Assembly: GCA_036499145.1 (NCBI GenBank)
Contig: DASYEG010000116.1
Coordinates: 798-64,797 of the forward strand
Length of the DNA stretch: 64,000 nt
Direction: 5' to 3'
DNA from: Micropepsaceae bacterium
GTDB lineage: Bacteria > Pseudomonadota > Alphaproteobacteria > Micropepsales > Micropepsaceae
The notes beneath the pieces are model-generated. The model was not told the DNA's origin. It did not search any database and worked only from the letters and a program-made list of their open reading frames with translations. Positions 4,117-62,711 of this stretch are shown here, one piece after another. Positions within the stretch are counted from its first letter, which is position 1. Each line of letters starts with the position of its first letter. Both the position numbers and the translations under genes were made by a program.

Positions 4117-4136
4117 TTGGGTCCAGTGATTCGACC

Positions 4137-9831: not shown

Positions 9832-9852
9832 GATAATCTTTCCGTTCCGTCG

Positions 9853-11051: not shown

Positions 11052-11092
11052 GACTTTCCGGCTGCGTCCAAAACTGCGATTCTGTGAATCTC

Positions 11093-14785: not shown

Positions 14786-14919
14786 ACGGTTGCAGACCGG
14801 CAAGCGCCTCTATCCTAACAGGATTTATGCTTCGCAAACCGGCGAAACCAAGCATTAATTCCCCTGCTCTACTATTGCGATCCGCATCGCGAAATTCGCG
14901 TGCACAGACCGGGGGACAT

Positions 14920-16053: not shown

Positions 16054-18079
16054 GCTTCTCGCCCGGCAATTGCGTGCGGCCACTAAGGAGGGAGCCGGCA
16101 TCGATCTCGACGCATTGATCGCGATCGTGGATCAAACCTATGCCGAATTCGACCGCGAACGCCGGCTGAACGATCGTGCCGCCACCCTCATGGAGGATGA
16201 GCTGAAGGCCGCGAATGCCGAGGCCAAGCGCGAACACGACATCGTACTGGCGGCGATTCTCGACAATGCGTCGGACGGAATGCTGGTCCTGCGGGGGAAC
16301 GGGGAAATCGTCATCGCCAATGCCGCGGCGGAGAAACAGTTCGCCGCATCTGTGGGAGCGCTCACCGGCATGCGGATCGCCATGCTTCTGGGCGAGGACG
16401 CCCATGCGATCGCGCGCGGAGAATATGGGCAGGGCGCAATGCCGGAACTCTCGGGCATGACGCTGGACGGACGCGCCTTTCCCATCGAGTATTCCTGCGC
16501 CGATCTGGACGTGTCCGGCGACAGGCGTCAGCTCTGGATGATTCGCGACATTTCGGAGCGCGTGCGCGCTCAGCGCGAAATCATGGAAAGCCGCATGCGC
16601 TTCCAGGATTTCGCGGAAGCCTCCTCCGACTGTTTCTGGGAGATGGATGCGAACCTGAAACAAGTCGAGGTCAGCTCCGCCTTACAGTCCGAACCCGTCG
16701 CGAATTTGTCCTCGCTCCTGGTGCCCGGTCCGGACGGGCTCACGCCCAAGGGGGTTGTGGAAGAGGGCTGGCGCGCATTCCGGCAGAATCTTTCGGCGCG
16801 CCAGCGTTTTCGCCTACGGCTCGATATCACCGGAAGCGACGGCGAAATATTATATGTGGCCGTCGGAGGCAAACCGGTTTTCGATCTCGATGGCGGCTTC
16901 CGCGGCTATCGCGGGACGGCGCGCGATGTGACGCGCGAAGTCGCGGCGCGCGAAGCGGCGCGGCGGGCTGAGCGCCGCCTGATCGAAGCGATGGATGCCG
17001 CGCCGTGCGCCGTAGCGCTGCTGGATTCGCGTCTGAGACTCGTGAGCGGCAATTCCGCACTGAGGACCATGGCATCGGCAAAAGGCGGCCGTCTGCCGTT
17101 CGGCGGATCGTTCCAGGACTTTCTCGGCGGCCTGAAAGCCGACGATATTGCCCCACAAAGTTTGCGCGGCCTCGTCCAAACCGGCGAGATGCGGGAAATG
17201 GCGATCGGTGGTTCGTGGTATCTGGCCGCGGCGGGCAGCTTGTCGGATGGCGGGATGGTTCTCACCTTTTCAGACGTCACCGCGCTCAAGGAACGCGAGC
17301 GCGAGCTTGCCGAGTCGAAGCTATCGGCCGAGTCCGCCAGCCGCCTCAAATCCCAGTTCCTTGCCACGATGAGCCATGAGCTGCGGACGCCCCTCAACGC
17401 GATTCTCGGTTTCTCCGAAGTCATCCGTGACGGCGTATTCGGGCGCAGCCAGAACGCCTGGGGAAAATACGCGGAATATGCCTCCTCGATCCATGCCAGC
17501 GGACGCCACTTGTTGTCGCTGATCTCGGAGATACTCGACCTCTCCAAGATCGAGGCGGGAAGTTATGTCCTCGATCTGCGCACGATCGATTTGCATGAGG
17601 TGGTGGAGGACGCCCTCACCATCGTGTCTCCGGCGGCGATGAAAGCCGGTGTCCAGCTCTGTCCGATCCTGCCGGCCGGCGAGATCTGGCTCACCGCGGA
17701 CGAGCGCGCCGTGCGCCAGATCGCTCTCAATCTTCTTTCCAACGCCGTCAAGTTCACTCCCGGTGGCGGCAGCGTCACAATCGAGGTGAGCACGGCTGGC
17801 GAAGAAGCAAAATTCACCGTCACCGACACCGGCATCGGTATCGACAAGGCACACGTATCGACGGTGTTCGAACTCTTCCGCCAGGTGGATTCCAGTCTCC
17901 AAAGGCGCCATGAGGGCACAGGGCTGGGTTTGGCCATCACGAAAAGGCTGATCGAACTGCATGGCGGCACGATTTCACTCGAAAGCGAACTCGCGGTCGG
18001 CACCAAGGTGAGCGTGACGTTTCCGGACGCGCTTGCCAGAACCAGCTCCGCGCCTATTCTCAAGGGCGCCGCGGCGTAG
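16034..18079 (+). CDS. PAS-domain sensor histidine kinase (no receiver domain)
   Basis: GTG start overlapping the FIST gene end. Has PAS-like segments, the H-box SQFLATMSHELRTPLNAILGFSE, and N/G1/G2 boxes (LLSNAVKFTPGGG, DTGIGI, GTGLGLAI). Confidence 0.85.
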   Translation: MRALVHKLLARQLRAATKEGAGIDLDALIAIVDQTYAEFDRERRLNDRAATLMEDELKAANAEAKREHDIVLAAILDNASDGMLVLRGNGEIVIANAAAEKQFAASVGALTGMRIAMLLGEDAHAIARGEYGQGAMPELSGMTLDGRAFPIEYSCADLDVSGDRRQLWMIRDISERVRAQREIMESRMRFQDFAEASSDCFWEMDANLKQVEVSSALQSEPVANLSSLLVPGPDGLTPKGVVEEGWRAFRQNLSARQRFRLRLDITGSDGEILYVAVGGKPVFDLDGGFRGYRGTARDVTREVAAREAARRAERRLIEAMDAAPCAVALLDSRLRLVSGNSALRTMASAKGGRLPFGGSFQDFLGGLKADDIAPQSLRGLVQTGEMREMAIGGSWYLAAAGSLSDGGMVLTFSDVTALKERERELAESKLSAESASRLKSQFLATMSHELRTPLNAILGFSEVIRDGVFGRSQNAWGKYAEYASSIHASGRHLLSLISEILDLSKIEAGSYVLDLRTIDLHEVVEDALTIVSPAAMKAGVQLCPILPAGEIWLTADERAVRQIALNLLSNAVKFTPGGGSVTIEVSTAGEEAKFTVTDTGIGIDKAHVSTVFELFRQVDSSLQRRHEGTGLGLAITKRLIELHGGTISLESELAVGTKVSVTFPDALARTSSAPILKGAAA

Positions 18080-18168: not shown

Positions 18169-19443
18169 ATGTCCGAGTCACCGCCAGACGTGCCGAGCCT
18201 GCCGCCTTGGCTGATGCGACTGCCGCGCGTGTTCCGGCACCGCAATTACCGGCTGTTCTATGCCGGCCAGGGCGTGGCCCTGATGGGCGCGTGGGTCCAA
18301 ACCGTGGCGCTCTCCTGGCTCGTCTACCGCCTTAGTCATTCGGTGTTTCTTTTGGGGCTTGTCTCCTTCGTCGCGCAGGCGCCGATCTTCTTCATCACGC
18401 CCTTTGCCGGCATGATCGCCGACCGGCACGACCGGCGCTTCGTCTTCATGATCACGCGTGCTCTTTGCATGATTCAGGCTGCGATCCTCACCGTCCTCAC
18501 ACTCACCGACAATGCCGGCATCGGAACCATCATCGCACTGGCGCTGGTCCTGGGGATCATCACGGCGGTGGAAACGCCGGTGAGACAGTCCTTCACGGTG
18601 GAAATGGTCGGGCGCGAGGATCTGCGCCAGGCGATTGCCTTCAACGCCATGATGTTCAATCTCGCGCGCACCTTGGGACCGGCGATCGGCGGGGTGATCG
18701 TAGCGGTTCTTGGCGAAGGGCTGTGCTTCCTGTTGAACACGCTGTCCTATGGTGCGGTTCTGACAAGTCTGTTCCTGATGCGCACAAAATCGCGCACTGG
18801 CCGGCCAACCACCCACCCCTGGGACGATCTGAAACAGGGATTCCAATATGTCACGCGTCACCCGCATCTGCGCATGGTGCTGTTTCTTTCCGCCACATGC
18901 TCCTGTTTCGGAACCTCCTATCTCGCGCTGATGCCGGCCTTCACGCAGGACATCCTGCATCAAGGCGCTGAGGCGCTCGGTTATCTCATCAGCGCCTTCG
19001 GCGTGGGCGCGATTTCGGGGGCTATCCTGGTGTCGCGGCTGCACGAGCGGCACCTGGCATTGACGCCTACCATCATGGCGGTGCTTCTGGGCGCGAGTCT
19101 GATAATTTTCGCCAACACCCAATCGATGCTGCTGGCGCTCTTGTTCGTTGTGCCCACTGGCTTGGGCTATCTCGGCATCGCGGTCTCCAGCAACACGCAA
19201 GTACAGACGCTGTCCGACGATGGGATGCTGGGCCGCATGATGGCTTTCTACGCGATGGGAGCACTGGGAACTCCCCCGTTCGGAGCGCTGCTGCTCGGCT
19301 ATATTTCCGACCTCGTGGGCGTGCGCAGTGCGTTCATGTTGAGCGGCGCCATCTGTCTCATTGCCGCAGGGCTCTCGCTGATGAGTCTCAGACGCCGCGG
19401 TCTCGTGGATTTCGCCGTCCTTCGCGAGGCGCAGGAACCATGA
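18169..19443 (+). CDS. MFS transporter (MFS_3 / EntS-like exporter type)
   Basis: 424 aa with about 12 hydrophobic helices. The N-terminus FRHRNYRLFYAGQGVALMGAWVQTVALSWLVYRL is typical of the enterobactin-exporter-like MFS subfamily. Its stop overlaps the next start (ATGA 19440-19443). Confidence 0.85.
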   Translation: MSESPPDVPSLPPWLMRLPRVFRHRNYRLFYAGQGVALMGAWVQTVALSWLVYRLSHSVFLLGLVSFVAQAPIFFITPFAGMIADRHDRRFVFMITRALCMIQAAILTVLTLTDNAGIGTIIALALVLGIITAVETPVRQSFTVEMVGREDLRQAIAFNAMMFNLARTLGPAIGGVIVAVLGEGLCFLLNTLSYGAVLTSLFLMRTKSRTGRPTTHPWDDLKQGFQYVTRHPHLRMVLFLSATCSCFGTSYLALMPAFTQDILHQGAEALGYLISAFGVGAISGAILVSRLHERHLALTPTIMAVLLGASLIIFANTQSMLLALLFVVPTGLGYLGIAVSSNTQVQTLSDDGMLGRMMAFYAMGALGTPPFGALLLGYISDLVGVRSAFMLSGAICLIAAGLSLMSLRRRGLVDFAVLREAQEP

Positions 19444-21755
19444 GCGTCAATGCGGACTTCGACGGCCTGAAGCGGATACGCGAAGCGATCGCGCTGCACC
19501 AGCAAGGCCGGCTTGCGGAAGCCGAGCGGCTCTACCGCGATATTCTCGCACATACGCCCGATCAACCCGATGCGCTTCACTTCCTGGGCATATTAGAAGG
19601 TCAGCGGGGCCGGCATCAGCCGGCTCTGCAATTGTTGGATCGCGCACTGGCGGTCAATCCGCGTCATCCCGCAATTGCCTATAATCGGGCAAATCTTCTG
19701 CGTGACATGGGCCGGCTCGAAGACGCGCTGACCGGCTACGATACAGCCCTCGCCATCAAACCGGACAATGTCCTCGCGCTCGGCAATCGCGGCGCGGTGC
19801 TGCATGGCTTAGGACGCTATGACGACGCAATGGCGAGCTATGAACGCGCGCTGGCGCTCAAGCCCGGCGATTGCGACACGCATTCCAATCGCGCAAACGC
19901 CCTGGCCGCCCTTGGACGGCATGAAGATGCGCTCGCCGGCTACGACAAGGCACTGGCGGGGAAGCCCGGCCACGTCGCCGCCCTTTACGGCCGGGGCAAT
20001 GCGTTGGCGAAACTGGGAAGGCCCGAGGAGGCGCTTGCTTCCTATGATCGGGCTGTCCAGTGCGATCCTGGCAATGCAGAGCTTCTCGCCAATCGCGCCA
20101 TCGTTCTGAGCGATCTCAACCGCTACGAGGAAGCGCTTGCGGAATTCGCGTCATCGATTGCACGCGCACCGGAGAATGCCGAATCGTTCAACAGTCGCGG
20201 CCTCGTATTCATGCAGCTTCGGCGCCATCGGGATGCTCTCGCGGATTTCACGCGAGCCTGCGAACTAAATCCGGCTTTCGCTAATGCTCTTTATGGGCGC
20301 GCTTCGGCCCTTGTCGAATTGAACCGTCACGACGAGGCCATTCCGGCCTTCGAACAATTGTTGCGGCAAGCGCCGGACTATCCCTATGGGCTTGGCATGC
20401 TGGTCTATGCCCAGAGGACAGCTTGCGATTGGCGCGACCTATCCGCGAGCGCTGCATTGGCCGATGCCATCGCGGCAGGAAAGCGCGTCGCTACACCGCT
20501 TGTGCTTCTCGCGATCTCCGATTCGCCTTCCCTGAAGCTGCGTTGCGCGGAAGTTCTGATCGCGGACAAATTCCGGCCCGTGGAGGAGCCTCTGTGGCGT
20601 GGCGATCGATCTCGTCATGAGCGGATTCGCGTCGCCTATCTTTCCGCGGATTTCCGACCCCACCCCGTGGCCATCCTGATGGCCGGCGTATTCGAGCATC
20701 ACGACCGCGAGCGTTTCGAGACCATCGCGATTTCCTATGGTACGGATGATAAAAGCATGATGCGCGCGCGACTGATGCAAAGTTTCGAGCGCTTCATCGA
20801 TGTGCGCGGCAAGAGCGACAGGCAGGTAGCCGCCCTGATCCACGATATGGAGGCCGATATCCTCGTCGATCTCACCGGCCTCACCGCCAGCGCACGCCCC
20901 GGAATCCTCGCGTTTCGCCCCGCGCCCGTGCAGGTGAACTATCTCGGCTTCGCTGGCTCTCTCGGCGCCCCTTACACGGACTATATCCTTGCCGACACGA
21001 TCGTCATCCCGGAAGATCAGCAGGTGTTTTACGCAGAGAAAATGGCTTATCTGCCGGCCTCCTACCTGCCCCATGATTCCAAGCGCCGCATCGCCGAACG
21101 CGCGCCCGCCCGCGGCGAACTCGGTCTGCCGGATTCGGGCTTCGTCTTTGCGTCTTTCAACAACAGCTACAAATTCACCCCCGAAATATTCGACGTCTGG
21201 ATGCGGCTGTTGCGCAAAATCGAGGGTAGCGTGCTGTGGTTGTCCGCATCGAACGCGGCCGCCCAGCGCAATCTGAAGCGCGAAGCCGAAGCGCGCGGCG
21301 TCGCTGGACATCGAATCGTGTTTGCCGGATTCGTGCCCCAAGGTGAAGATCATCTCGCGCGGCTGGCCGCCGCGGATCTTTTTCTGGACACGTTTCCCTA
21401 TAATGCCCACACGACCGCGAGCGATGCATTGTGGGCGGGGCTTCCGCTCTTGACCTGCAAAGGCCAGAGTTTCGCCAGCGCGGTGGCGGCCAGCCTGCTG
21501 CAGGCCTGCGGCTTGCCGGAGTTGATCACCGATTCACTGGCAGCCTACGAAAACCGTGCCCTCGATCTCGCCCGCAACGCTGCCGCGCTGGCCGATATAA
21601 GAGCGAAACTCAGCAGCAATCGCGATGTTTGCGCCCTCTTCGACACGGCCCGTTTCACACGAAATCTCGAACGCGCTTACACGACGATGTGGAAACGTTC
21701 GCAATCCGGCACCGAACCCACCAGCTTTCACGTCGAACCGGTGGCAGACCCATGA
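19440..21755 (+). CDS. TPR repeat protein with C-terminal GT41 (OGT/SPINDLY-like) glycosyltransferase domain, paralog 1 (771 aa)
   Basis: N-terminal 34-aa TPR periodicity (…A.YNRANLL…G..E.A…YD.ALA..P…). The C-terminal module has OGT-type motifs: RIRVAYLSADFRPHPVA, RPAPVQVNYLGFAGSLGAPYTDYILAD, FNNSYKFTPE, YNAHTTASDALWAGLP. Confidence 0.9.
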   Translation: MSVNADFDGLKRIREAIALHQQGRLAEAERLYRDILAHTPDQPDALHFLGILEGQRGRHQPALQLLDRALAVNPRHPAIAYNRANLLRDMGRLEDALTGYDTALAIKPDNVLALGNRGAVLHGLGRYDDAMASYERALALKPGDCDTHSNRANALAALGRHEDALAGYDKALAGKPGHVAALYGRGNALAKLGRPEEALASYDRAVQCDPGNAELLANRAIVLSDLNRYEEALAEFASSIARAPENAESFNSRGLVFMQLRRHRDALADFTRACELNPAFANALYGRASALVELNRHDEAIPAFEQLLRQAPDYPYGLGMLVYAQRTACDWRDLSASAALADAIAAGKRVATPLVLLAISDSPSLKLRCAEVLIADKFRPVEEPLWRGDRSRHERIRVAYLSADFRPHPVAILMAGVFEHHDRERFETIAISYGTDDKSMMRARLMQSFERFIDVRGKSDRQVAALIHDMEADILVDLTGLTASARPGILAFRPAPVQVNYLGFAGSLGAPYTDYILADTIVIPEDQQVFYAEKMAYLPASYLPHDSKRRIAERAPARGELGLPDSGFVFASFNNSYKFTPEIFDVWMRLLRKIEGSVLWLSASNAAAQRNLKREAEARGVAGHRIVFAGFVPQGEDHLARLAAADLFLDTFPYNAHTTASDALWAGLPLLTCKGQSFASAVAASLLQACGLPELITDSLAAYENRALDLARNAAALADIRAKLSSNRDVCALFDTARFTRNLERAYTTMWKRSQSGTEPTSFHVEPVADP

Positions 21756-23947
21756 GCGAGGCGGCGCTCAAACAGGCGTGGAGCTTGCAGCAAGCGGGGC
21801 AACATGGCGAAGCCGCACGGCTCTACGCCGATGTTCTGCGCACAAACCCGCGCAATTTCGATGCGCTTTTCCAATTGGGTAACATCTATCTCGTCACCGG
21901 ACATCCCGCCGACTCTGAACGGCTTTATGCCCGCGCTGCACAGATCAATTCGCAATCACCCGAGCTGTTCTATAATCGCGGGTGCGCGGCCATGAGCCTT
22001 TCCCGCCACGAAGATGCGCTTGCCGCTTTTGCGCATGCTCTTGCGCTCCGTCCCGATTTCACCGAGGCACGCAACAATCGTGGCGTCACCCTCCTTTCGC
22101 TCAAGCGGCATAAGGAGGCACTAGCGTGTTTCGACCGCGTACTGGCGGACAGGCCCGGCCTTGCCACTGTTCAGAACAATCGCGCCACCGCTCTTCTGGG
22201 TTTGCTTCGCCAGGAAGAAGCCCTTGCCGCTGCCGAACTCGCCTTGTGCGAGAATCCACAGGATGCGCATGCGCTTTACAATCGTGGCGCGGCGCTGATG
22301 ATGATCGGGCGGCTTCCGGAATCCCTGTCGCAGTTCGACAAGGCGCTCTCCGTCAATCGCGATTATGCGGACGCCCTCATCTATCGGGGTATCGTGCTTG
22401 CCGTGCTGAACCGTCATGAGGAAGCGCTGGCCAGCTATAACATGGCACTCGTAATCCGGCCAGGCGACATCGAGATTCTTTATAATCGCGCGACCTCGCT
22501 TTGGGCGCTGAAACGCTTCGAGGAAGCAATTCCCGATTGCGAAGAGGTCTTAAAGCGCAATCCGCATTTCAAATATGCGCGCGGCAATTTGGTGCAGAGC
22601 AGGCTGCAGTGCTGCGACTGGCAGAATTTGACGGAGGATAAGGTAAAAATCGTGACGGATTTGCACAATGGCGTGCTGACCCTCAATCCGCTGCAGAGCA
22701 TCGTGCTGTTCGATTCGCCGGACATGCTGCTGCAAGCCGCGCGGCTCTGGATCGCCAACGAATGCGCGCCCGCGATGACGCCGTTGTGGCAGGGCGAAAT
22801 CCATAAGCACGACCGCATCCGTATCGCCTACATGTCGGCTGATTTTCGTATGCATGCCGTGGCGCTGCTGGTGGCGGGCGTTTTCGAGCATCACGATCGA
22901 ACGCGTTTCGAGACCACCGCGATTTCGATAGGTCCCAACGATTCAAGCCCCATGCGCGCGCGACTGGAAACGGCCTTCGACCGCTTCATCGACGTGCAGG
23001 ACCGCACCGATGCCGAGGTCGCCGAACTGATCCGTGAGATGGAGATCGATATTCTCATCGACCTCACCGGGTTTACGCAACACGGCCGCACCGGCATTCT
23101 GGCGCGGCGTCCGGCGGGGATTCAGGTGAACTTTCTTGGCTTCCCGGGCACCATGGGCGCGCCTTATATCGACTACATCCTTGTCGATGAAACTGTCATT
23201 GTAGAAGCCGATCAGCGCTATTTCGAAGAGAAAGTGGCGTATCTGCCCGAAACCTATCTCCCGAACGATTTCACACGCGCCATCGCAGAACACTCGCCGA
23301 GCCGCGCAGAATCGGGACTGCCTGAGAATGGTTTCGTGTTCTGCACCTTCAACAATCTTTCCAAGATCACGCCTGAGACGTTTGATGTCTGGATGCGCCT
23401 GCTCGAAAATGTCCCGGACAGCGTGTTGTGGCTCTCCCAGGCCAATCCTTCGGCCATCCGCAATCTGAGGCGCGAGGCGCAAGCGCGCGGCATCGCGGGC
23501 AACCGGATTCTGTTTGCGCCGTTCGTCCAAGCACCCGAAGAACATCTGGCGCGGCTGCGTCTTGCCGATTTGTTCCTCGACACGCGGCCCTATAACGCCC
23601 ACGCAACGGCATGCGACGCGCTATGGGCGGGTGTCCCCATGGTGACGCAGATAGGGTCCAGCTTCGCCGGACGCGTGGGCGCCAGTCTTTTGACCGCGAT
23701 CGGCCTTCCCGAATTGATCGCGCATTCCGAAGAGGAATATGAGGCTCTCGCCCTGCGGCTTGCCCGCGATCCCACGGCACTCGCGCTCCTGAAGGAGAAG
23801 CTTGCGAACAATCGCATGACGCATCCGCTGTTCGATACCGCCCGCTTCACGCGCGATCTCGAAAGCGCCTATCTTGCCATGTGGGAACGTCATCGGCGGG
23901 GCGAATCGCCCCGTGGCTTCAGGTCCAGCGAAACCATTGCACAATGA
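21752..23947 (+). CDS. TPR + GT41 glycosyltransferase, paralog 2 (731 aa)
   Basis: Inner part of ORF 21431..23947. ATG 21752 overlaps the paralog 1 stop (ATGA). Starts MSEAALKQAWSLQQAGQHGEAARLY. Same C-terminal motif set (YMSADFRMHAVA, RPAGIQVNFLGFPGTMGAPYIDYILVD, FNNLSKITPE). Confidence 0.9.
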   Translation: MSEAALKQAWSLQQAGQHGEAARLYADVLRTNPRNFDALFQLGNIYLVTGHPADSERLYARAAQINSQSPELFYNRGCAAMSLSRHEDALAAFAHALALRPDFTEARNNRGVTLLSLKRHKEALACFDRVLADRPGLATVQNNRATALLGLLRQEEALAAAELALCENPQDAHALYNRGAALMMIGRLPESLSQFDKALSVNRDYADALIYRGIVLAVLNRHEEALASYNMALVIRPGDIEILYNRATSLWALKRFEEAIPDCEEVLKRNPHFKYARGNLVQSRLQCCDWQNLTEDKVKIVTDLHNGVLTLNPLQSIVLFDSPDMLLQAARLWIANECAPAMTPLWQGEIHKHDRIRIAYMSADFRMHAVALLVAGVFEHHDRTRFETTAISIGPNDSSPMRARLETAFDRFIDVQDRTDAEVAELIREMEIDILIDLTGFTQHGRTGILARRPAGIQVNFLGFPGTMGAPYIDYILVDETVIVEADQRYFEEKVAYLPETYLPNDFTRAIAEHSPSRAESGLPENGFVFCTFNNLSKITPETFDVWMRLLENVPDSVLWLSQANPSAIRNLRREAQARGIAGNRILFAPFVQAPEEHLARLRLADLFLDTRPYNAHATACDALWAGVPMVTQIGSSFAGRVGASLLTAIGLPELIAHSEEEYEALALRLARDPTALALLKEKLANNRMTHPLFDTARFTRDLESAYLAMWERHRRGESPRGFRSSETIAQ

Positions 23948-26043
23948 GCGGTGGCACGATCCAAAAAGCGTTCGGTCTGCATCGTGCGGGCAAACTCGAC
24001 GAAGCCGCGAAGGTTTACAGCGAAATCCTGCGCAGCGAACCCCGTCAAGTGGATGCACTCTATCTGCTTGGATCGGTTCATTTTCAACGTGGTGAATTTA
24101 GCGATGCGCTGGCCCGTTTCGATGAAGCGCTTGCCATTAAGCCGCGCTTCATCGAAGCCATGGCCGGACGCGGCGCGGCGCTCTCGAATTTCGGCCGGCA
24201 GGAAGAAGCGTTGACGGCCTATGAGACTGTGCTGGCGGCCAGTCCCGATCACGCGCAGAGTTGGAACAATCGCGGCAATACGCTGCTTGTTCTGGGTCGC
24301 GAGCAAGACGCGCTCGCCAGCTACGACCGGGCGCTCAGCCTGGTGCCGAATTACGTCGATGCGTGGCGCAATCGCGCAACCGCCTTGCTGCGGACAGGAC
24401 GGATCGAGGAGGCGCTGGCGAACTTCGAGAGGGCGCTTGAACTCAAGCCCGATTTCGCCGTTGCGTGGGAGGACTACGCCACCGTGCTGGCAAGACTTGG
24501 CCGGCGCGAAGATGCCATCGTGGCCTATGATCGCGCGCTCGCCCTCACGCCGGACAATCCGGACCTGCTGTATAATCGCGGCAACCTCCACGCCATCCTG
24601 AGACGTTACGACGAGGCCATCCATGACTGCGAGGCCACGTTGGCGCGCGCGCCCGATTATCCCTACGCCCGCGGCGTGCTGATTCATTCAAAGCTGCAAA
24701 GCTGCAACTGGCGGGGATTGGATGCGGAGATTTGGAATATCTCGATGGCGCTGGCCGCGGGCAAGCGGGTGGTATCGCCGTTCAATCTCAAGGCGCTGTC
24801 CGATTCGCCGCCGGAACATTTGCGCGTGGCACAGATCTGGACCGCCAACGAAGCACCTGCGCCGCCGTTTCTGGCGTCCAAACCTCTCGGGCAAAGCCCG
24901 CGCGACACGCATGACCGCATCCGCCTGGCCTATGTCTCAGGCGATTTCAACAGCAGCGCCGTGGCGACCCTGATGGCGGGCGTGTTTGAACATCACGACC
25001 GCAGAATGTTCGAGACGATTGCGGTCTCCTTCGGGCCCGCCGCCAGCACGCCCACGCGCGTGCGATTGGAATCCGCGTTCGAACGCTTCGTCGATATGCG
25101 GGGCAGGAGTGACGGCGAAATCGCCAATCTGTTACGCGACATGGAAGCCGATATCGCCGTCGATCTGATGGGATATACCGGCGAATGTCGCACCGCCATC
25201 TTCGCCCAACGCCCCGCTCCCGTGCAGGTGAACTATCTCGGCTTTCCCGGCACCATGGGCGCATCCTATATGGACTATATCATCGCCGATTCCACCGTCG
25301 TGCCCGAAGATCAGCAGCGTCACTACGCCGAGGCCGTCGCCTATCTGCCCCATTGTTATTTGCCGGCCGACCGCGCGCGTGGGGTGGCAGAGACCATTCC
25401 CAGCCGCGCCGAGGCGGGATTGCCGCAAGACGGCTTCGTCTTCGTCTCGTTCAACAACAGCTACAAATTCAACCCCGTGATGTTCGGCGTCTGGATGCGG
25501 CTGTTGCGTGCGGTGGAGGGGAGCGTGCTGTGGCTGCCGGAAACCAATCTGGCAGCGCGGCGCAATCTCGTGCGTGAAGCCGAAGCGCGCGCCGTGGCGC
25601 CCGCGAGGATCGTGTTCGCCCCCCTTGTGCCCGATGCCGGCGAACATCTGGCGCGACTCTCGCTTGGCGATCTGTTTCTCGATACGCTGCCCTACAATGC
25701 GCACACCACTGCAAGCGATGCGCTCTGGGCGGGTGTTCCGGTTCTGACGCAGATCGGCAACAGCTTCGCGGGGCGCGTGGCCGCGAGCGCCCTGAAAGCC
25801 GTCGGCCTCGCCGAATTGATCGCCCGCACACCGGACGAATACGAGGCCATAGCGCTGGCACTTGCGCGCGATCCCGTGAGGCTTGGCGAAATTCGGGCAA
25901 AGCTCGGCCGCAACCGCCTGACCACACCCTTATTCGATACGGCGGGGTTCACTCGCGATCTCGAGACCGTGTTCACCACCATGTGGGCGCGGCACCGGCG
26001 CGGCGAGATGCCCGCAAGCTTTGCTGTCGCAGCCACGGATTAA
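23944..26043 (+). CDS. TPR + GT41 glycosyltransferase, paralog 3 (699 aa)
   Basis: Inner part of ORF 23881..26043. ATG 23944 overlaps the paralog 2 stop (ATGA). Starts MSGGTIQKAFGLHRAGKLDEAAKVY. C-terminal motifs are conserved, except DFNSSAVA where the other copies have DFxxH. Confidence 0.9.
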   Translation: MSGGTIQKAFGLHRAGKLDEAAKVYSEILRSEPRQVDALYLLGSVHFQRGEFSDALARFDEALAIKPRFIEAMAGRGAALSNFGRQEEALTAYETVLAASPDHAQSWNNRGNTLLVLGREQDALASYDRALSLVPNYVDAWRNRATALLRTGRIEEALANFERALELKPDFAVAWEDYATVLARLGRREDAIVAYDRALALTPDNPDLLYNRGNLHAILRRYDEAIHDCEATLARAPDYPYARGVLIHSKLQSCNWRGLDAEIWNISMALAAGKRVVSPFNLKALSDSPPEHLRVAQIWTANEAPAPPFLASKPLGQSPRDTHDRIRLAYVSGDFNSSAVATLMAGVFEHHDRRMFETIAVSFGPAASTPTRVRLESAFERFVDMRGRSDGEIANLLRDMEADIAVDLMGYTGECRTAIFAQRPAPVQVNYLGFPGTMGASYMDYIIADSTVVPEDQQRHYAEAVAYLPHCYLPADRARGVAETIPSRAEAGLPQDGFVFVSFNNSYKFNPVMFGVWMRLLRAVEGSVLWLPETNLAARRNLVREAEARAVAPARIVFAPLVPDAGEHLARLSLGDLFLDTLPYNAHTTASDALWAGVPVLTQIGNSFAGRVAASALKAVGLAELIARTPDEYEAIALALARDPVRLGEIRAKLGRNRLTTPLFDTAGFTRDLETVFTTMWARHRRGEMPASFAVAATD

Positions 26044-26065
26044 TTATGCTTCGATCCCGCCCGTC

Positions 26066-28765
26066 ATGAACGATCACATTCTGCAGAACGCGTGGCGGCT
26101 GCATCAGGCAGGACAATTCGCCGAGGCCGCACGGCTCTACAATCAGGTGCTGAGCGCCAATCCGCGCCATCTGGGCGCGCTGCAGATGCTCGGCTATCTC
26201 CATTTCCAGCGCGGTGAGCTGAACGATGCCGATCGCATCATGGCGCGTGCGCTGAAGCTCGATCCGACATCGGTGGATGCGCTCTACAATCGCGGCTGCG
26301 TTCTGCAGGCGCTCGGCAAGGAACGCGATGCGCTGGCCAGTTTCGACCGGGCGCTCGCGCTGAAGCCCGATTACGCGCCTGCGATGGCCAATCGCGGCAA
26401 TGTGCTGGCGCGGTTGGGGCGCTTTGCCGATGCGCTCGCGAGCTACAATCTGGCGCTGGCCTTGATGCCAGCATCCGCAGAATTGCTGCTCAATCGCGGC
26501 AATGCGCTATTCGAACTCGGCCGCCACGCCGAAGCGCTGACGAGCTACGATCAGGCGTTGGCGAAGGAACCGCAAGTTCCGATCGTCTGGCACAATCGTG
26601 GCAATGCGCAGGCCGAACTCGGGCGTCATGTGGAGGCGTTGGCGAGCTTTGACCGCGCCATTCAATTGGATGCCCGCTATGGCGACGCCTATTTCGGGCG
26701 CGGCGCCGCACTCGTAAAGCTCGAACGCGACAGCGAGGCGCTCGCAGATTTCGAAAAGACATTGGCGCTCGATCCGGCCCATCTCGCAGCGCTCCACAAT
26801 CGGGGACGTATATTGCGAAAGACCCTGCGGATCGCCGAGGCGCTCGCCGCGTTCGAGGCCATCCTCGCGTTCGAGCCTACCTATACCGAAGCCATGATCG
26901 ACAAGGGCATCACGCTGATCGCCCTGAAACGCCACGCCGAAGCGCTCGCCGCGTTCGATAGCGCCCTAACGCTCGCGCCCGGCAATGTGGAAGCCCTGAC
27001 GAATCGCGCGAGCGCGTTGATCCGCCTGAAGCGTTACGAAGAAGCCCGCGCGGATTCCGTCCGCGCGACAGCCGCGGAACCTGCGAACGCTGCCGCCTGG
27101 CACAATCTCGGCGGCGCACTCTCCGGGCTGAAGCGGCCTAAGGACGCGCTCGTCTGTTTGGACAAGGCGCTCGCTCTCGCGCCGGACAATGGGGCAAGCT
27201 GGAACAATCGCGGCGCCGCGATGGTGGTGCTGAAACAGGAGGAGGCGGCCCTCCCTTATTTCGACAAGGCGCTCCAACTCGATCCGTCCGATGTCGACAG
27301 CTGGGCAAACCGCGCGCGCGCCCATTCTAATCTGCGGCATTTCACGGAAGCCATCGCCGACAGCGACCGGGCGCTCGCCATCGACCCCGATCTCGCGGCG
27401 GCAAAACGCATCGGCATCCACGCGCGCCTTCACGCCTGCGCTTGGGAGCGGCGTGACGACGACAAACGGCGGATCACGGCAGGCCTCACAGCGGGAGAAC
27501 GGATCATCACCGCGCTCGACCATCGCGGTCTATGCGATTCCGAAAGCGAGAACCTCATCGTCGCGCGGTTATGGGCCATGGAAGAATATCCCCCCGCTCC
27601 CAATCCGCTCTGGCGCGGCGAACGCTATTCCCACGACAAAATTCGCATCGCCTATGTTTCGACCGATTTCCGGGCCCACGCGGTTGCCTTCCTCATCGTG
27701 GGCTCATTCGAACATCACGACAAGCAGCGTTTCGAAACCACCGCCATCTCGATTCATCCAGGCGACGGCAGCGAGACGCGAAACCGCATCGAAACCGCGT
27801 TCGACCGCTTCATCGATGCGACCGCGATGAGCGATGCCGAAGTCGCAGCGCGGCTCAAGGAGATGGAAATCGATATCGCCATCGATTTGAACGGCTATAC
27901 GGGCGACGCGCGCACCGGCATTTTCGCGCATCGTGCCGCGCCCGTGCAGGTGAATTATCTTGGCTATCCCGGCACCATGGCCGCACCCTATATGGACTAT
28001 ATCATTGCCGATCCGATCACGATCCCGGCCGAGCACCGGACGTATTACAGCGAGAAAGTCGTGTATCTGCCGAACGCCTATCAGGCCAACGACCGCAAGC
28101 GGCGCATCGCGGAGCGCACGCCCACACGCGCCGAATGCGGATTGCCGCAAGAGGGGTTCGTGTTTGCCTGCTTCAACAACACGCACAAGATCGGACCTGA
28201 GATATTCGGCATCTGGATGCGCCTATTGCGCGATTATGCCGGCAGCGTGTTGTGGCTGTTCGAGGACAATGCCGTCGCTGCCCAAAATCTCCGACGTGAG
28301 GCGGCCGCACGCGGCGTGGCCCCGGAGCGGCTGGTGTTCGCGCCCCGCATGATGCCGCCCGAGCATCTGGCCCGCACGCGGCTCGCCGATCTTTTCCTCG
28401 ACACTCTTCCCTACAATGCCCACACCACGGCGAGCGACGCGCTGTGGATGGGGTTGCCGGTCGTCACTTGCCCCGGGACCACCTTCCCCTCCCGCGTGGC
28501 GGCAAGTCTGCTCCATGCCATCGGGATGCCGGAATTGGTGACATCCTCGCTCGCGGAATATGAGGAACTGGTGCGCGTTCTGGCGAAGAACCCTGAACGG
28601 CTTGCGGAAATCCGGGCGAAGCTCGCGCGAAACCGCGACATCGAGCCCATGTTCGATACGGCGGGGTTCACTCGCGATCTTGAAGCGGCTTACACCGGCA
28701 TGTGGGAACGGCAGCAGGCGGGGCGCGCAGCGGAGAGCTTCGCCGTGCCTGCCGAAGCGCCGTAG
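26066..28765 (+). CDS. TPR + GT41 glycosyltransferase, paralog 4 (899 aa, longest TPR arm)
   Basis: Inner part of ORF 26021..28765. Start ATG 26066 (MNDHILQNAWRLHQAGQFAEAARLY) was chosen by analogy with the other paralogs. An upstream TTG at 26021 is possible. About 520 aa of TPR repeats precede the GT41 module. Confidence 0.88.
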   Translation: MNDHILQNAWRLHQAGQFAEAARLYNQVLSANPRHLGALQMLGYLHFQRGELNDADRIMARALKLDPTSVDALYNRGCVLQALGKERDALASFDRALALKPDYAPAMANRGNVLARLGRFADALASYNLALALMPASAELLLNRGNALFELGRHAEALTSYDQALAKEPQVPIVWHNRGNAQAELGRHVEALASFDRAIQLDARYGDAYFGRGAALVKLERDSEALADFEKTLALDPAHLAALHNRGRILRKTLRIAEALAAFEAILAFEPTYTEAMIDKGITLIALKRHAEALAAFDSALTLAPGNVEALTNRASALIRLKRYEEARADSVRATAAEPANAAAWHNLGGALSGLKRPKDALVCLDKALALAPDNGASWNNRGAAMVVLKQEEAALPYFDKALQLDPSDVDSWANRARAHSNLRHFTEAIADSDRALAIDPDLAAAKRIGIHARLHACAWERRDDDKRRITAGLTAGERIITALDHRGLCDSESENLIVARLWAMEEYPPAPNPLWRGERYSHDKIRIAYVSTDFRAHAVAFLIVGSFEHHDKQRFETTAISIHPGDGSETRNRIETAFDRFIDATAMSDAEVAARLKEMEIDIAIDLNGYTGDARTGIFAHRAAPVQVNYLGYPGTMAAPYMDYIIADPITIPAEHRTYYSEKVVYLPNAYQANDRKRRIAERTPTRAECGLPQEGFVFACFNNTHKIGPEIFGIWMRLLRDYAGSVLWLFEDNAVAAQNLRREAAARGVAPERLVFAPRMMPPEHLARTRLADLFLDTLPYNAHTTASDALWMGLPVVTCPGTTFPSRVAASLLHAIGMPELVTSSLAEYEELVRVLAKNPERLAEIRAKLARNRDIEPMFDTAGFTRDLEAAYTGMWERQQAGRAAESFAVPAEAP

Positions 28766-30448
28766 ATGGGCGACGGCCCGCCCCCGCCCGAACATTTGGC
28801 GAAGCTGCATTTCCAGGAGGGCCGCTTCGAATTGGCCTTGCGGCATCTCGATCTGGCGATTGCCGCCGCACCCGGGACCGCCCAATTGTGGAACAGCCGG
28901 GGTGCGGTGCTCGCGACGATGACGCGATTCGAAGACGCTCATCAAAGCTTCAGCCGCGCGTTGATGCTCGCGCCGGACTTCGCCAGCGCGAGCATCAATC
29001 GTGCCCATGTGCTGATGGCGTTGCACCGTTACGAAGCGGCAATCGCCGATTACGAGCATGTCCTGCGCATCAATGACCGAATTCCGTTCGCGCGCGGCAA
29101 TCTGATCCGCGCCAAACTGCAATGCTGCGATTGGCGCGGTCTTGCGGAAGAATGGGAACGTGCGCTGGACGAAATGCGCGCCGGCCGGCCCATCATTTCC
29201 CCGATGGTCGCAACCACTCTTTGCGATGCACCGCAGGATCAGCTTCGTGTCTCGCGGATTTTGGCGGAAACCCGATATCCGCCCGCGCGCACACCACTCT
29301 GGAACGGCGAAATCTATCGCCACCCGCGAATCCGGATCGCCTATCTGTCGTCGGACTTCCACGCCCATGCGACCGCGACGCTGATGGCTGGATTGTTCGA
29401 GGCGCATGACAAAACCCGGTTCGAAACCTTCGCCGTGTCTTTCGGACCCGAGGACGCCAGTCCCATGCGCCAGCGCCTGGTGCATGCGTTCGAGCATTTC
29501 CTGACTGTCGGGGACAAAAACGACACGGAAATCGCGAAGCTGCTGCGCGAGCACGAGATCGACATCGCCATCGATCTGAAAGGTTTCACCGATCAATCGC
29601 GCCCCGGCATCCTCACTGCGCGGCCTGCGCCGCTGCAGGTGAACTATCTCGGCTTTCCCGCAACCATGGGCGCACCCTATATGGATTACATCGTCGCGGA
29701 CCGCGTGGTGGTCCCGCCCGCCAATGCCATCCACTACACCGAGAAGATCGTTTATCTGCCGCATTCCTATCAACCCAATGACAGGACGCGCGCGGCCGGG
29801 ACACCGCCCACCCGCGCCAGCGAAAATCTGCCGGAAATCGGTTTCGTCTTCTGCTGCTTCAATGCGAGCTACAAAATCCAGCCTGTGATATTCGACATCT
29901 GGATGCGGCTCATCCGTGACGTGCCATCCAGCGTGCTGTGGCTTCTCGACGACAATCCGCAAGCCCAGCGCAATTTGAAACGCGAAGCGGCTGCGCGCGG
30001 CGTAGACGCGGACCGTCTCGTCTTCGCGCCGCGAAAACCGGTCGCCGAACATCTGGCGCGGCACAGCCTCGCCGATATCTTCCTCGACACGCTGCCCTAC
30101 AACGCGCACACCACCGCCAGCGACGCGCTGTGGATGGGGCTACCGCTGGTCACATGCCCCGGCACGACATTTCCCGCGCGCGTGAGCGCGAGCCTGCTTT
30201 CGGCGATGGGGCTGCCCGAACTGATGACATCCTCTTTGGCGGAATATGAAGAATTGGCGAGGGCGCTGGCGCGCGATCCGCAGCGGCTTGCGGCCATCAG
30301 GGCGAAGCTCGCGCGGTCCTGCGAAACTTCGCCTCTGTTCGATGCCGCGCAATACGCGCGTAATCTTGAATCCGCCTATATGACGATGTGGGAACGCCAG
30401 CAGCGCGGCGATGCGCCCGCAACCTTCACGGTGGACACTGCCGGCTGA
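28766..30448 (+). CDS. TPR + GT41 glycosyltransferase, paralog 5 (560 aa, shortest TPR arm)
   Basis: ATG directly abuts the paralog 4 TAG (28763-28768). Only about 185 aa lie before the conserved [13 protein letters not shown] motif. It has the full C-terminal motif set. Confidence 0.9.
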   Translation: [560 protein letters not shown]

Positions 30449-30457
30449 TCCCCACGA

Positions 30458-60251: not shown

Positions 60252-62711
60252 TTGCATGCTCAGACTCCATTGGAGATCGCGATAGGCGAGGAAAGGGACA
60301 CCGCCGCGGACTCGGACACGCATGAGACCGCTCAGCTGCTGGCCGAAGCGATTCGCCTGCATCGGTCGGGGCGGATGGCCGACGCTGCGCGCCTCTGTGA
60401 GCGCGTGCGTCAGCACGCGCCGGACAATTTGACGGCATTGCTGCTATCGGGAACGATCGAGCTGCAGTCTGGCCGACATCATGCGGCCGACCAATATTTC
60501 CAGCTTGCGCAAGCGGCCGCACCGCACTCAGTCGACGCGGCCACCGCGCGGTCGAACACGCTCAGAGCGATCGGCAAACATGATCAGGCCCTTGCTGTAC
60601 TCGAGGATATTCTCCGGCACAGCCCCGATCACGCAATCGCATGGAACAATCGGGGTAATCTGCTGCTGGAAATGGGGCGAAACACTAATGCGATCGAGAG
60701 TTATGACCGCGCGATTTCGCTTCATCCCAATTACCTCGACGCATTGCACAATCGTGGCGTCGCACGAATGGCTTCAGGCGACAATTTTGCGGCGGAAGCC
60801 GACCTCACGCGGGCTCTGGAGCTGAAACCGGATTACGTCCCTGCCCTTGTGAACCGCGGAACGGCGCGCGTCCAGCAAAGTCCGGAGCGCGCACATGACG
60901 CGATCACGGACCTTCGGCAGGCCGTCCTGTTGGAGAGAACAAACCCCGATGCGTGGCATATGCTGGGCCGAAGCTATCTTGCGCTCGGACAGCATGCGGA
61001 AGCCTTGTCCAATTGGTCCACGGGGCTGGCGCGGCACGCGAACCATGCGGCGATGCGACACGACAGGGCTTTTTTATTCAACGCGCTCGGCCGCTATTCC
61101 GATGCCGCTACCGATTTCGAACGGCTGATTGCGCTGAACCTCCATGATGCGGCGGCATGGCAGGGACGCGGAATCGCGCTGGCGCGGCTGAATCATGAAA
61201 AAGAGGCGCTCGAGAGCTTTTCGCAAGCGCTGAGATTCAGGCCCGACGATGTTGTGTCTCTGTACAATCGCGCGGCGATTTTTTCCAGGTTGAAACGCTA
61301 TGAGGAAGCCGCTTCCGATCTGGAGGTTCTGGTCGCTGCGGATCCTGAATTTCCGCTCGCCCGCGGGCTGTTGCTGAGCGCGCGACTGTATCTATCCGAC
61401 TGGAAGGGACTGGAACGGCAACGCGAGGCCATCGATGCCTGCGTGCGGCGCGGTTCGAGGGTGATCCATCCATTTGCACATCTTCTGATATCGGATTGCT
61501 CAGCCGCGCAGCTCGCTTGCGCGCGGCGGCACACCTCTGGCGCGTATCCCACCGCGCGCGTGCCGCTCTATCGCGGTGAGCAATACAGCCATGAAAAAAT
61601 TCGCGTGGCATATTTTTCGGGTGATTTTTACCAGCACGCCGTCCCATCTCTGATTGCGGGCGTGCTGGAAAATCACGATTCCAGCCGGTTTGAGATTCTT
61701 GGGATTTCCTACGGCGGTAACGACAAGAGCCCGATGCGCGCGCGCTTGGAGAAAGCATGCGCCCGCTTTTTCGACGTGCGCGAACGCGATGATGCATCGA
61801 TCGCGACACTGCTCCGGAATCTGGAAGTCGATATGATCATCGACCTGAAGGGCCACACCGGCCCCGAACGTCCTGGAATACTCGCTCACCGGCCTTGTCC
61901 GGTGCAGGTGAATTATCTCGGTTATCCCGGAACCATGGGGGCCGATTATATGGATTATCTCATCGCCGACCGGATCGTAATCCCGCCGGAACAGCGGCAG
62001 TTTTATTCCGAACAGATCGTCTACCTGCCCGATACGTATCAGGCAAATGATTCCGCGCGCCCGATAGCGCCGGACGGTATTACCCGCGGCGATGCAGGCC
62101 TGCCGGAGGCGGCATTTGTATTTTGTTGCTTCAATGGCAGTCAGAAAATTCTGCCGCCAGTATTTGATTCCTGGATGCGGATTTTGTCGCACTCCGAAAA
62201 CAGTGTCCTTTGGTTGCTTGAGGACAATCAAGGCACGGCCGTGAATCTTCGTCGTGAGGCGCAGGCGCGAGGTATTGCAGCAGAGCGATTGATTTTTGCC
62301 CGCCACGAGCGGCCTGACCGCCACCTCGCCCGGCTCAAATTGGCTGATCTCGTTGTGGATACGCTGCCCTATGGAGCGCACACAACGGCCAGCGATGCGC
62401 TGTGGGCCGGAGTACCGGTGCTGACCTGCATCGGATCAAGTTTTGCCGGGCGTGTCGCCGCAAGCCTTCTCACGGCCGCCGGCCTGCCTGAACTGATCAT
62501 GCAATCGGTTGTTGAATATGAAGCAACGGCGCAAAATTTCGCCGCTACGCCGGGACTGTTGTTGAAAATCCGGGAAAAGCTGGCGCGCAACCGCGAAAGC
62601 TGCGCGTTGTTCGATACGGTTCGTATGACGCGGAACCTCGAAGCCGCTTATGTGAAAATGTGGCAGCGCCACCAGCGCGGCGAATCTCCCACGGGCTTTG
62701 CGTTACCCTGA
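60252..62711 (+). CDS. TPR + GT41 glycosyltransferase, paralog 6 (about 819 aa)
   Basis: Begins 1 nt after the ALDH stop. A TTG start at 60252 is assumed and is uncertain. About 446 aa of TPR repeats come first. Then YFSGDFYQHAVP, RPCPVQVNYLGYPGTMGADYMDYLIAD, FNGSQKILPP, YGAHTTASDALWAGVP. Confidence 0.85.
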   Translation: MHAQTPLEIAIGEERDTAADSDTHETAQLLAEAIRLHRSGRMADAARLCERVRQHAPDNLTALLLSGTIELQSGRHHAADQYFQLAQAAAPHSVDAATARSNTLRAIGKHDQALAVLEDILRHSPDHAIAWNNRGNLLLEMGRNTNAIESYDRAISLHPNYLDALHNRGVARMASGDNFAAEADLTRALELKPDYVPALVNRGTARVQQSPERAHDAITDLRQAVLLERTNPDAWHMLGRSYLALGQHAEALSNWSTGLARHANHAAMRHDRAFLFNALGRYSDAATDFERLIALNLHDAAAWQGRGIALARLNHEKEALESFSQALRFRPDDVVSLYNRAAIFSRLKRYEEAASDLEVLVAADPEFPLARGLLLSARLYLSDWKGLERQREAIDACVRRGSRVIHPFAHLLISDCSAAQLACARRHTSGAYPTARVPLYRGEQYSHEKIRVAYFSGDFYQHAVPSLIAGVLENHDSSRFEILGISYGGNDKSPMRARLEKACARFFDVRERDDASIATLLRNLEVDMIIDLKGHTGPERPGILAHRPCPVQVNYLGYPGTMGADYMDYLIADRIVIPPEQRQFYSEQIVYLPDTYQANDSARPIAPDGITRGDAGLPEAAFVFCCFNGSQKILPPVFDSWMRILSHSENSVLWLLEDNQGTAVNLRREAQARGIAAERLIFARHERPDRHLARLKLADLVVDTLPYGAHTTASDALWAGVPVLTCIGSSFAGRVAASLLTAAGLPELIMQSVVEYEATAQNFAATPGLLLKIREKLARNRESCALFDTVRMTRNLEAAYVKMWQRHQRGESPTGFALP

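Follow-up and report, generated by a model that had tools for sequence, protein, structure and literature searches.

The question raised by this locus is what a bacterium does with five tandem genes for proteins resembling the eukaryotic O-linked N-acetylglucosamine (O-GlcNAc) transferase (OGT), placed directly behind the gene of a major facilitator superfamily (MFS) transporter. The genes lie in a 64,000-nucleotide (nt) stretch of the genome of a soil-dwelling alphaproteobacterium of the Micropepsaceae (contig DASYEG010000116.1, positions 798 to 64,797; hereafter the window), and their products, GT1 to GT5, carry tetratricopeptide repeats (TPRs) ahead of a glycosyltransferase family 41 (GT41) catalytic module (Table 1). 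An initial annotation of this DNA had described an EntS-like MFS exporter coupled to a battery of five OGT-like enzymes. From direct observations of gene structure, family, fold, residue conservation, orthology with synteny, and purifying selection, we propose with moderate confidence that the locus is a conserved, co-transcribed array of cytoplasmic, TPR-guided protein glycosyltransferases of the type of the Xanthomonas campestris OGT (XcOGT), which are sub-functionalised and probably use a uridine diphosphate (UDP)-linked sugar smaller than GlcNAc, and that the MFS gene is a neighbor belonging to the chromosomal backbone. The gene models of the initial annotation, an MFS gene followed by five same-strand TPR-GT41 genes, agree with the open reading frame (ORF) list, the DNA and Pfam.

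GT1-GT5 are genuine GT41/OGT-like paralogs with N-terminal TPR arms of differing length. Searches with hidden Markov models of both Glyco_transf_41 and TPRs, run on each array protein, matched all five: the scores against PF13844 (Glyco_transf_41) were 261-292 bits (cut-off 25; E 1.6e-77 to 7.3e-87), and many TPR models were hit as well. Counted from the motif H(D/E/P)(R/K)IR(V/I/L)AY to the C-terminus, the catalytic modules of GT1 to GT5 measure 379, 379, 377, 377, and 375 amino acids (aa), and the arms in front of them 392, 352, 322, 522, and 185 aa; direct measurement thus reproduced the lengths first reported. Full-length pairwise identity among the five proteins is 42-54%. The motif strings that had been quoted for the catalytic module stand as a general pattern, but they are consensus-like and not exact in every copy: GT2 has FNNLSK and NAHATACD, GT3 departs from its quoted motif in a 14-letter string, and GT4 and GT5 have ALWMG. 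A search for a named NCBIfam family for the GT41 genes returned only sub-threshold, TPR-driven matches (MamA, PrsT and similar) and a very weak match to the N-glycosyltransferase (NGT) family. Signal-peptide-like N-termini were found in none of the array proteins.

The repeats of the arms were counted by a 34-aa register analysis, which gave about 9, 8, 7, 13, and 3 repeats for GT1 to GT5. They are contiguous, in an unbroken 34-aa register (3 to 13 repeats), and are followed by a helix with a CDW motif as in the transitional helix of human OGT (hOGT). An Asn occupies TPR position 6, which we take to correspond to the substrate-binding Asn ladder of hOGT, in 4/9 repeats of GT1, 5/8 of GT2, 3/7 of GT3, 9/13 of GT4, and 1/3 of GT5. 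An AlphaFold2 model of GT5 (47 homologs; predicted local distance difference test 91.7, predicted template modelling score 0.91) has paired helices to residue 170 and then Rossmann lobes. In Foldseek comparisons the model reached TM-scores of 0.90/0.92 with XcOGT (2jlb; 33% identity), 0.85-0.87 (query-normalised) with hOGT, and 0.74-0.80 with the plant enzyme SPINDLY (SPY). In a sequence search of the PDB, GT5 matched hOGT best (1.5e-98), followed by XcOGT (1.3e-88) and SPY (~1e-55), and the match to TtOGT was much weaker than those to hOGT and XcOGT. The two-lobed GT-B catalytic fold is found for GT5 by the model, and is supported for the other paralogs by the 54-62% identity of the catalytic modules to one another. 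A TPR superhelix joined by transitional helices to the catalytic domain, as found here, places the proteins in the TPR-containing OGT/SPY subfamily. The intervening domain of hOGT (~120 residues) has no counterpart, residues 340 to 348 of GT5 spanning hOGT 738 to 860 (chain numbering), and the same gap is seen in the active-site alignment.

For the active sites, hOGT segments were taken from the PDB alignment and numbered by the anchors K842 and H558, a numbering that reproduces C917 of PMC9715652. The equivalents of hOGT D554, K842 (for its role see PMC4683255), H901, R904, H920, T922, and D925 are invariant in GT1-GT6, GT6 being a sixth paralog described below. The catalytic Lys and the nucleotide/phosphate-binding residues expected of GT41 are present, with exceptions at three positions: the T921 equivalent is Ala in the window GT2 and in every GT2 ortholog, the H558 equivalent is Ser in the window GT3 and Ser or Thr in 7/7 GT3 orthologs, and the K898 equivalent is conserved in none of GT1-GT6. 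The loop before the HLAR motif is one residue longer in GT1-3 than in GT4/5. The idea that the locus encodes one catalytic scaffold behind five arms holds, therefore, for the arms, which do differ, but not for a constant pocket, given the changes at H558 in GT3 and T921 in GT2 and the differing HLAR-loop lengths.

The equivalent of hOGT C917, the donor gate, is Tyr in 6/6 window proteins and in the majority of the array proteins from relatives. According to Zhu et al. (PMC9715652), the residue at this position (SPY Y744, XcOGT Y463, TtOGT Y419, ApHMW1C F517) sets an upper bound on donor-sugar size, and a Tyr there is argued to exclude GlcNAc, UDP-GlcNAc being a poor donor for XcOGT. By this criterion, the Tyr in all six proteins disfavors UDP-GlcNAc as donor; the window enzymes are OGT-like and probably not GlcNAc-transferring, and the gate suggests a donor sugar smaller than GlcNAc. 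Two hallmarks of an O-GlcNAc transferase in the strict sense, a small gate residue (C917 in hOGT) and the metazoan intervening domain between N-Cat and C-Cat, are missing from the six proteins. The initial claim that the module matches O-GlcNAc transferase motif by motif survives for the UDP/phosphate-binding residues and fails at the donor gate. In relatives the gate is His in an 'extra' orthogroup (the first GT41 of the loci L005 and L008) and Cys in L013_11255 and L015_2819, and because of these departures from Tyr, members of the GT41 family may differ in donor sugar.

The five tandem genes are not the full set, as the initial annotation had it, since a sixth copy lies 30 kb downstream. 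GT6 is 42-48% identical to GT1-5, the identity on which its family assignment is based (Pfam scoring covered GT1-GT5), and is 54% identical to the GT5 catalytic module by tblastn. An alternative TTG start at 60252 would extend it to 819 aa. It stands apart from the array, with an aldehyde dehydrogenase gene (58682-60250) directly before it, and shares 14 nt with a 317-aa ORF (62698-63651) for which a Pfam scan gave no match.

The array is old and maintained. A scan of a genome collection with the MFS protein yielded eight loci in related metagenome-assembled genomes (MAGs) at 70-91% MFS identity, with which the window proteins were compared by tblastn. Exact look-ups of single proteins gave no longer context: the MFS led to a contig of 1.6 kb, and GT3 had no match, probably owing to a differently called start. 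The relatives have the order lutB, lutC, FIST, histidine kinase (HK), MFS, GT41 genes, as in the window, and each window GT41 has its own best match at the same position (58-74% identity), so that both the adjacency of MFS_3 to GT41 and the tandem arrangement recur in related Micropepsaceae MAGs. A neighbor-joining tree of the catalytic modules resolves clean GT1, GT2, GT3, GT4, and GT5 orthogroups, which are 1:1 and in conserved order in L002-L008 and L017, and the 22-nt gap before GT4 recurs in L003. The copy number varies: L004, L005, and L008 have an extra GT41 between MFS and the GT1 ortholog, L007 is without HK and GT1 ortholog and ends in a GT5-like gene followed by a convergent M16 peptidase, L013, whose MFS is 67% identical, carries five or more GT41 genes without 1:1 correspondence to the window set, and L017 has four intact copies and frame-broken fragments. 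Because the orthogroups are ordered and 1:1 while copies vary between related loci, we regard the array as old and maintained, with slow turnover by gene birth and death. In L017, catalytic-module matches at 1824-5089 are split across frames, which suggests a decayed or frameshifted copy, and an unannotated 438-aa gene stands between MFS and the intact GT41 genes; the fragments and the intervening gene are signs of genes arising and being lost within the array. The L003 contig (CAZBRO010000004.1) is labelled 'uncultured Bordetella sp.'. It carries a Micropepsaceae-type lutBC-FIST-HK-MFS-GT41x4 arrangement with an MFS 83% identical to that of the window, and its taxonomic label is probably wrong or the contig mis-binned.

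Both parts of the proteins are conserved between orthologs. In the GT1-GT4 groups, the arms of orthologs are 51-75% identical and the catalytic modules 62-75%; in the GT5 group the values are 24-45% and 63-64%, respectively, and between the paralogs of the window they are 30-43% and 54-62%. The arm is 352 aa long in 7/7 genomes for GT2, 318-322 aa in 5/6 genomes measured for GT3, and 522 aa in 3/4 genomes for GT4. Pairwise ratios of nonsynonymous to synonymous substitution rates (dN/dS) are ~0.15-0.37 in arms and catalytic modules alike, as approximate values given a saturated dS of ~0.8-1.7. Every paralog, arm included, is thus kept by purifying selection, which makes redundancy or decay unlikely and sub-functionalisation the natural reading. 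Sub-functionalisation would involve arm and pocket together, and not the arm alone.

The junctions of the genes, read from the DNA, are those first reported: ATGA overlaps at 19440-19443 (MFS/GT1), 21752-21755 (GT1/GT2), and 23944-23947 (GT2/GT3), a 22-nt spacing between GT3 and GT4 (26044-26065), and an abutment of GT4 and GT5 as TAG|ATG (28763-28768), so that the intergenic DNA within the five-gene array amounts to 22 nt in total. This layout, with an MFS/GT41 overlap that is kept in relatives, supports the earlier view that the junctions suit one translationally coupled transcript, and the array is probably co-transcribed. The 12.3-kb unit of MFS and five GT41 genes has the right genes, but it does not start at MFS: the packed same-strand run reaches upstream to 10997 and comprises acyltransferase, lutA, lutB, lutC, FIST, PAS histidine kinase, MFS, and GT1-GT5, with overlaps or small gaps throughout and its largest gap, 89 nt, before MFS. 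Consensus scans found 7 promoter-like sites (4.3+/-2.2 in shuffled sequence) and 15 terminator-like sites (16.2+/-3.8 in shuffled sequence); both are uninformative background levels, and the scans do not delimit a transcript.

Is the MFS transporter part of the enzyme system? It scores 207.5 bits against Pfam MFS_3 (cut-off 27) and 149.8 bits against the NCBIfam EntS equivalog NF007792 (cut-off 324). No siderophore genes are found near it, its neighbors being lutABC and FIST-HK, so the family part of an EntS-type assignment is right and the description as an EntS-like enterobactin exporter has to be dropped. The MFS homologs fall into two groups, one of 67-100% identity with the array and one of 54-57% identity, of which three contigs lack it. 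The array-less contigs read lutA-lutB-lutC-MFS-Lactamase_B on the first, lutB?-lutC-FIST-PAS/HK-MFS-Lactamase_B on L019, and MFS-Lactamase_B on L020; behind MFS, on these three sister-clade contigs, there is no GT41 gene, a metallo-beta-lactamase-fold gene being found instead. The L019 orthologs are 69% (FIST), 52-56% (HK), and 54% (MFS) identical to those of the window. Because the orthologous MFS keeps its place in this backbone where GT41 genes are absent, it does not need the array; MFS, like FIST-HK and lutABC, is a conserved chromosomal backbone gene, behind which the array is found in one clade only.

An argument for a closer tie is the 4-nt MFS/GT41 overlap (ATGA or GTGA), which is kept in the window and in L002-L006, including L004 and L005, although a different GT41 orthogroup comes first there. 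Elsewhere the spacing is 6 nt (L013) or ~390 nt (L007), or a gene intervenes (L017). The kept overlap supports co-expression of MFS and array; it does not show export of an array product. We consider it unlikely that the MFS and the five GT41 proteins form one export system, in which the enzymes would glycosylate a peptide, small molecule, or secreted protein for an EntS-like MFS to export. The MFS_3 relatives do include EntS, Mef/Tet efflux proteins and a 'ryptide export' transporter, and the overlap is as such a system would have it, but the array-less sister contigs, the wide L007 gap, the intervening L017 gene, and the score below the EntS equivalog cut-off speak against it, and the run, with its 22 nt of intergenic DNA, contains no precursor-peptide, siderophore, or other scaffold-biosynthesis gene. 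Moreover, folded proteins are not known as substrates of MFS transporters, which have 12 to 14 helices. Compared with EntS and other MFS_3 efflux transporters, the window protein belongs to the same Pfam family, and the neighbors conserved with it are lutABC and FIST-HK rather than GT41 genes. Of the original claim of an exporter coupled to the enzyme battery, the overlap holds, co-expression is likely, and a functional export system is not supported; MFS probably shares expression with the array and does not export its product. An operon adjacency of MFS and GT41 genes can be a positional accident despite a conserved 4-nt overlap.

Among known enzymes, XcOGT (XCC0866; PDB 2jlb, 2vsy, 2vsn) resembles GT5 end to end (GT5 31-527 with XcOGT 49-545): both have ~3 TPRs followed by a transitional helix and by N-Cat and C-Cat lobes, lack the intervening domain, and carry Tyr at the gate (Y463 in XcOGT). 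However, XcOGT is described as a single protein, whereas the window has six paralogs, five of them in tandem, whose arms reach 13 TPRs and whose pockets carry changes specific to their orthogroups. The window proteins share with hOGT the CDW transitional helix and the conserved K842, H901, R904, H920, T922, D925, and D554, and the ~13 TPRs of GT4, mostly with a position-6 Asn, recall the 13.5 TPRs and Asn ladder of hOGT. They differ from it in the intervening domain, which hOGT has, in C917 (Tyr in the window), in K898 (not conserved in the window), and in H558 (lost in GT3). Furthermore, animal OGT is encoded by one essential gene per genome, in contrast to the multi-paralog array, and no O-GlcNAcase of family GH84 was found among the ~40 window ORFs scanned with Pfam.

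The Arabidopsis protein O-fucosyltransferase SPY, also of GT41, has the TPR-GT41 architecture and a gate Tyr (Y744; PMC9715652). It uses guanosine diphosphate (GDP)-fucose, whereas the window proteins are nearer to the UDP-binding enzymes, and its match is much weaker than those of OGT and XcOGT; with only the gate Tyr in common, the window proteins are not closer to SPY than to OGT. The bacterial cytoplasmic HMW1C/NGT enzymes and Yersinia pestis HmwC are placed in GT41 by CAZy, have an aromatic gate (F517 in ApHMW1C), and use UDP-hexose donors (PMC9715652). Unlike the window proteins, they are TPR-less and linked to two-partner-secretion adhesin genes, of which the window has none, and the window GT41 proteins score only 24-35 bits against the NGTferase model NF049992 (cut-off 1000). 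The nearest functional precedent, by its described architecture and modular logic, would be the alphaproteobacterial FlmG of Caulobacter, with an N-terminal TPR and a C-terminal GT-B domain. Its TPR domain binds flagellin substrates, and its GT-B domain glycosylates flagellins in the cytoplasm (PMC7591256). However, FlmG is encoded by one gene that is linked to those for flagellin and pseudaminic acid, and no flagellar, pseudaminic-acid, or legionaminic-acid (Pse/Leg) genes occur in the 64-kb window.

Relatives of the catalytic module are numerous, with at least 7,959 database clusters at E<=1e-30, named 'protein O-GlcNAc transferase' or 'SPINDLY family' by JGI and 'tetratricopeptide repeat protein' by NCBI. 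Relatives of the GT5 group at 64% identity occur in a Xanthobacteraceae MAG, where two copies stand in tandem; Azospirillum plasmids carry 3-5 GT41 copies among sugar or lipopolysaccharide (LPS)-type genes; and one MAG homolog, in single copy, adjoins UDPGT-type genes. Multi-copy TPR-GT41 sets are thus a general, uncharacterised alphaproteobacterial feature, and in the literature searched on COG3914, GT41 paralogs, and alphaproteobacterial OGT homologs we found no description of such arrays. The window proteins are new members of GT41, and their array, conserved in order and sub-functionalised, gives a known kind of enzyme a new organisation.

In the mechanism that we propose, a TPR superhelix would be joined through the OGT-like transitional helix, with its CDW motif, to a two-lobed GT-B domain without intervening domain. 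The TPR arm would grip a client protein and thread a segment of it into the active site, and a sugar would be moved from a nucleotide sugar, most likely UDP-linked, by the conserved Lys (hOGT K842) with the phosphate-binding His, Thr, and Asp. The paralogs would be old, sub-functionalised duplicates, each orthogroup having its own arm length and pocket signature; they would probably act on different clients, and possibly with different donors or at different steps. MFS would share expression with the array through the translationally coupling 4-nt overlap, in one Micropepsaceae clade. Within this scheme we infer the protein acceptors, the type of donor, the co-transcription, and the absence of a functional link to MFS.

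Several points weigh against this proposal. The chief difficulty is that a native substrate has yet to be firmly established for any bacterial TPR-GT41 of this type; in vitro, XcOGT and TtOGT glycosylate proteins weakly or not at all (PMC9715652, PMC4683255), and the term 'protein glycosyltransferase' is therefore an extrapolation. The window ORFs that were scanned include neither a candidate client nor a gene of sugar biosynthesis nor a glycoside hydrolase that could serve as 'eraser'. The Azospirillum plasmid homologs lie among LPS or sugar-biosynthesis genes, so that non-protein acceptors are conceivable. In addition, a genuine functional tie could lie behind the kept 4-nt MFS/GT41 overlap, the sister clade without the array may once have possessed it, and the saturation of dS bears on the selection argument.

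The gene context in Azospirillum leads to the alternative that the GT41 paralogs act on glycans or envelope polymers, decorating LPS, capsule, or exopolysaccharide with their TPR arms docked to an assembly machine. In the plasmids, the homologs lie among WavE, glycosyltransferase family 2, HAD, SIS, methyltransferase, and aminotransferase genes, the MAG homolog mentioned above adjoins genes of the UDPGT family, and XcOGT and TtOGT are without clear protein substrates (PMC9715652, PMC4683255). Nevertheless, this alternative appears improbable to us, as the GT41 members with demonstrated activity (OGT, SPY, HMW1C/NGT, Yersinia HmwC, Synechococcus Ogt) all modify proteins in the literature searched, and Pfam scans of the window ORFs show no sugar or envelope-biosynthesis genes flanking the array. 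A gene context of the Azospirillum type would, moreover, be just as usual for a flagellin-glycosylation island. Pfam scans of the remaining window ORFs also revealed no flagellin, pilin, or sugar-biosynthesis context.

A more ambitious alternative ties the array to the upstream signalling genes. It would be a multi-writer intracellular glycosylation system, with graded TPR numbers and distinct pockets serving different sugars or clients or acting sequentially, under a NosP-like FIST protein and its kinase. The FIST and PAS histidine kinase genes overlap by 20 nt, and the pair has NCBIfam matches to the nitric oxide sensor NosP and to NahK/ErcS 'near_NosP' kinases that are weak and far below cut-off; it may be a NosP/NahK-like signalling module, and no response regulator was seen near it. 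We consider this alternative quite unlikely; if true, it would be a prokaryotic, diversified counterpart of the eukaryotic single-enzyme O-GlcNAc/O-fucose signalling.

It is very unlikely, in our estimation, that only some of the paralogs are active, the others, notably GT3, being TPR scaffolds, adaptors, or regulators in hetero-oligomers, or that the set builds a short glycan sequentially. The lost H558 in the GT3 orthologs and the Ala for T921 in the GT2 orthologs are what such a division would leave, hOGT dimerises through its TPRs, and mutation of H558 cripples hOGT. For sequential action, HMW1C is known to make both protein-sugar and sugar-sugar bonds (PMC9715652). On the other hand, GT3 and GT2 retain K842 and an otherwise intact phosphate-binding set, and the dN/dS of the GT3 catalytic module, 0.17, is as low as that of the other paralogs. 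An anti-phage defence system, for which PADLOC gave no meaningful match, and a ribosomally made or glycopeptide cluster with the neighboring M16 peptidase, which is convergent on the opposite strand, with 22 nt of intergenic DNA leaving no room for a precursor and no other maturation genes present, were rejected.

The array of TPR-guided protein glycosyltransferases that we favor bears on a wider question, since bacterial TPR-GT41 proteins are abundant and yet functionally obscure, and their structural models, XcOGT and TtOGT, are without known physiological substrate. It offers a natural experiment in which the catalytic fold is roughly constant, the TPR number is 3, 7, 8, 9, or 13, and three pocket positions also vary and are conserved within orthogroups. 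With it one can test in what way the length of the arm and the residue at the gate determine which clients and donors an enzyme of the OGT family accepts, and whether several OGT-like modifications run in parallel in a single bacterium. The JGI 'protein O-GlcNAc transferase' labels on such genes are probably wrong about the sugar. The array is a useful natural system for OGT-family specificity and not a new mechanism, and the exporter coupling is probably positional.

Table 1. Features of the TPR-GT41 locus and its upstream neighbors in the window
Feature	Position	Strand	Basis and remarks
MFS_3-family transporter, 424 aa	18169..19443	+	Pfam MFS_3 3.9e-61; its stop overlaps GT1 start (ATGA)
GT1, TPR-GT41 glycosyltransferase, 771 aa	19440..21755	+	PF13844 1.6e-77; ~9 TPRs and 379-aa catalytic module
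GT2, TPR-GT41, 731 aa	21752..23947	+	PF13844 5.7e-85; ~8 TPRs
GT3, TPR-GT41, 699 aa	23944..26043	+	PF13844 4.3e-80; ~7 TPRs
GT4, TPR-GT41, 899 aa	26066..28765	+	PF13844 4.9e-84; ~13 TPRs
GT5, TPR-GT41, 560 aa	28766..30448	+	PF13844 7.3e-87; ~3 TPRs
GT6, sixth TPR-GT41, 778 aa from ATG	60375..62711	+	identity to GT1-5; ~9 TPRs (34-aa register analysis)
FIST-domain protein	14827-16053	+	Pfam match; directly upstream of PAS histidine kinase
PAS histidine kinase	16034-18079	+	Pfam match; directly upstream of MFS
Acyltransferase	10997-11977	+	upstream end of packed run
lutA (CCG), lactate utilisation	11974-12750	+	Pfam and synteny
lutB, lactate utilisation	12747-14180	+	Pfam and synteny
lutC, lactate utilisation	14144-14785	+	Pfam and synteny

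The surroundings of the array carry no distinctive signal of horizontal transfer in base composition, the GC fraction being 0.59-0.63 over the array and 0.61-0.64 in the flanks. Downstream, a convergent gene for an M16 (insulinase-type) peptidase of 913 aa (30458-33199, minus strand) ends 9 nt from the GT5 stop (30448), with no recognisable terminator between the two stops (30448-30458), and the convergence of a GT5-like gene with an M16 gene recurs in L007. Further on, a penicillin-amidase-family gene (34886-37099, plus strand) overlaps by 4 nt a GH3-family (acyl-acid amido synthetase-like) gene (37096-38628, plus strand), an unusual pairing. Upstream, TauE, Alph_Pro_TM, acyl-CoA dehydrogenase, and alpha/beta hydrolase genes at 6861-10608 were assigned by the gene order of relatives, and the block from TauE to lutC is syntenic both in relatives with the GT41 array and in relatives without it.

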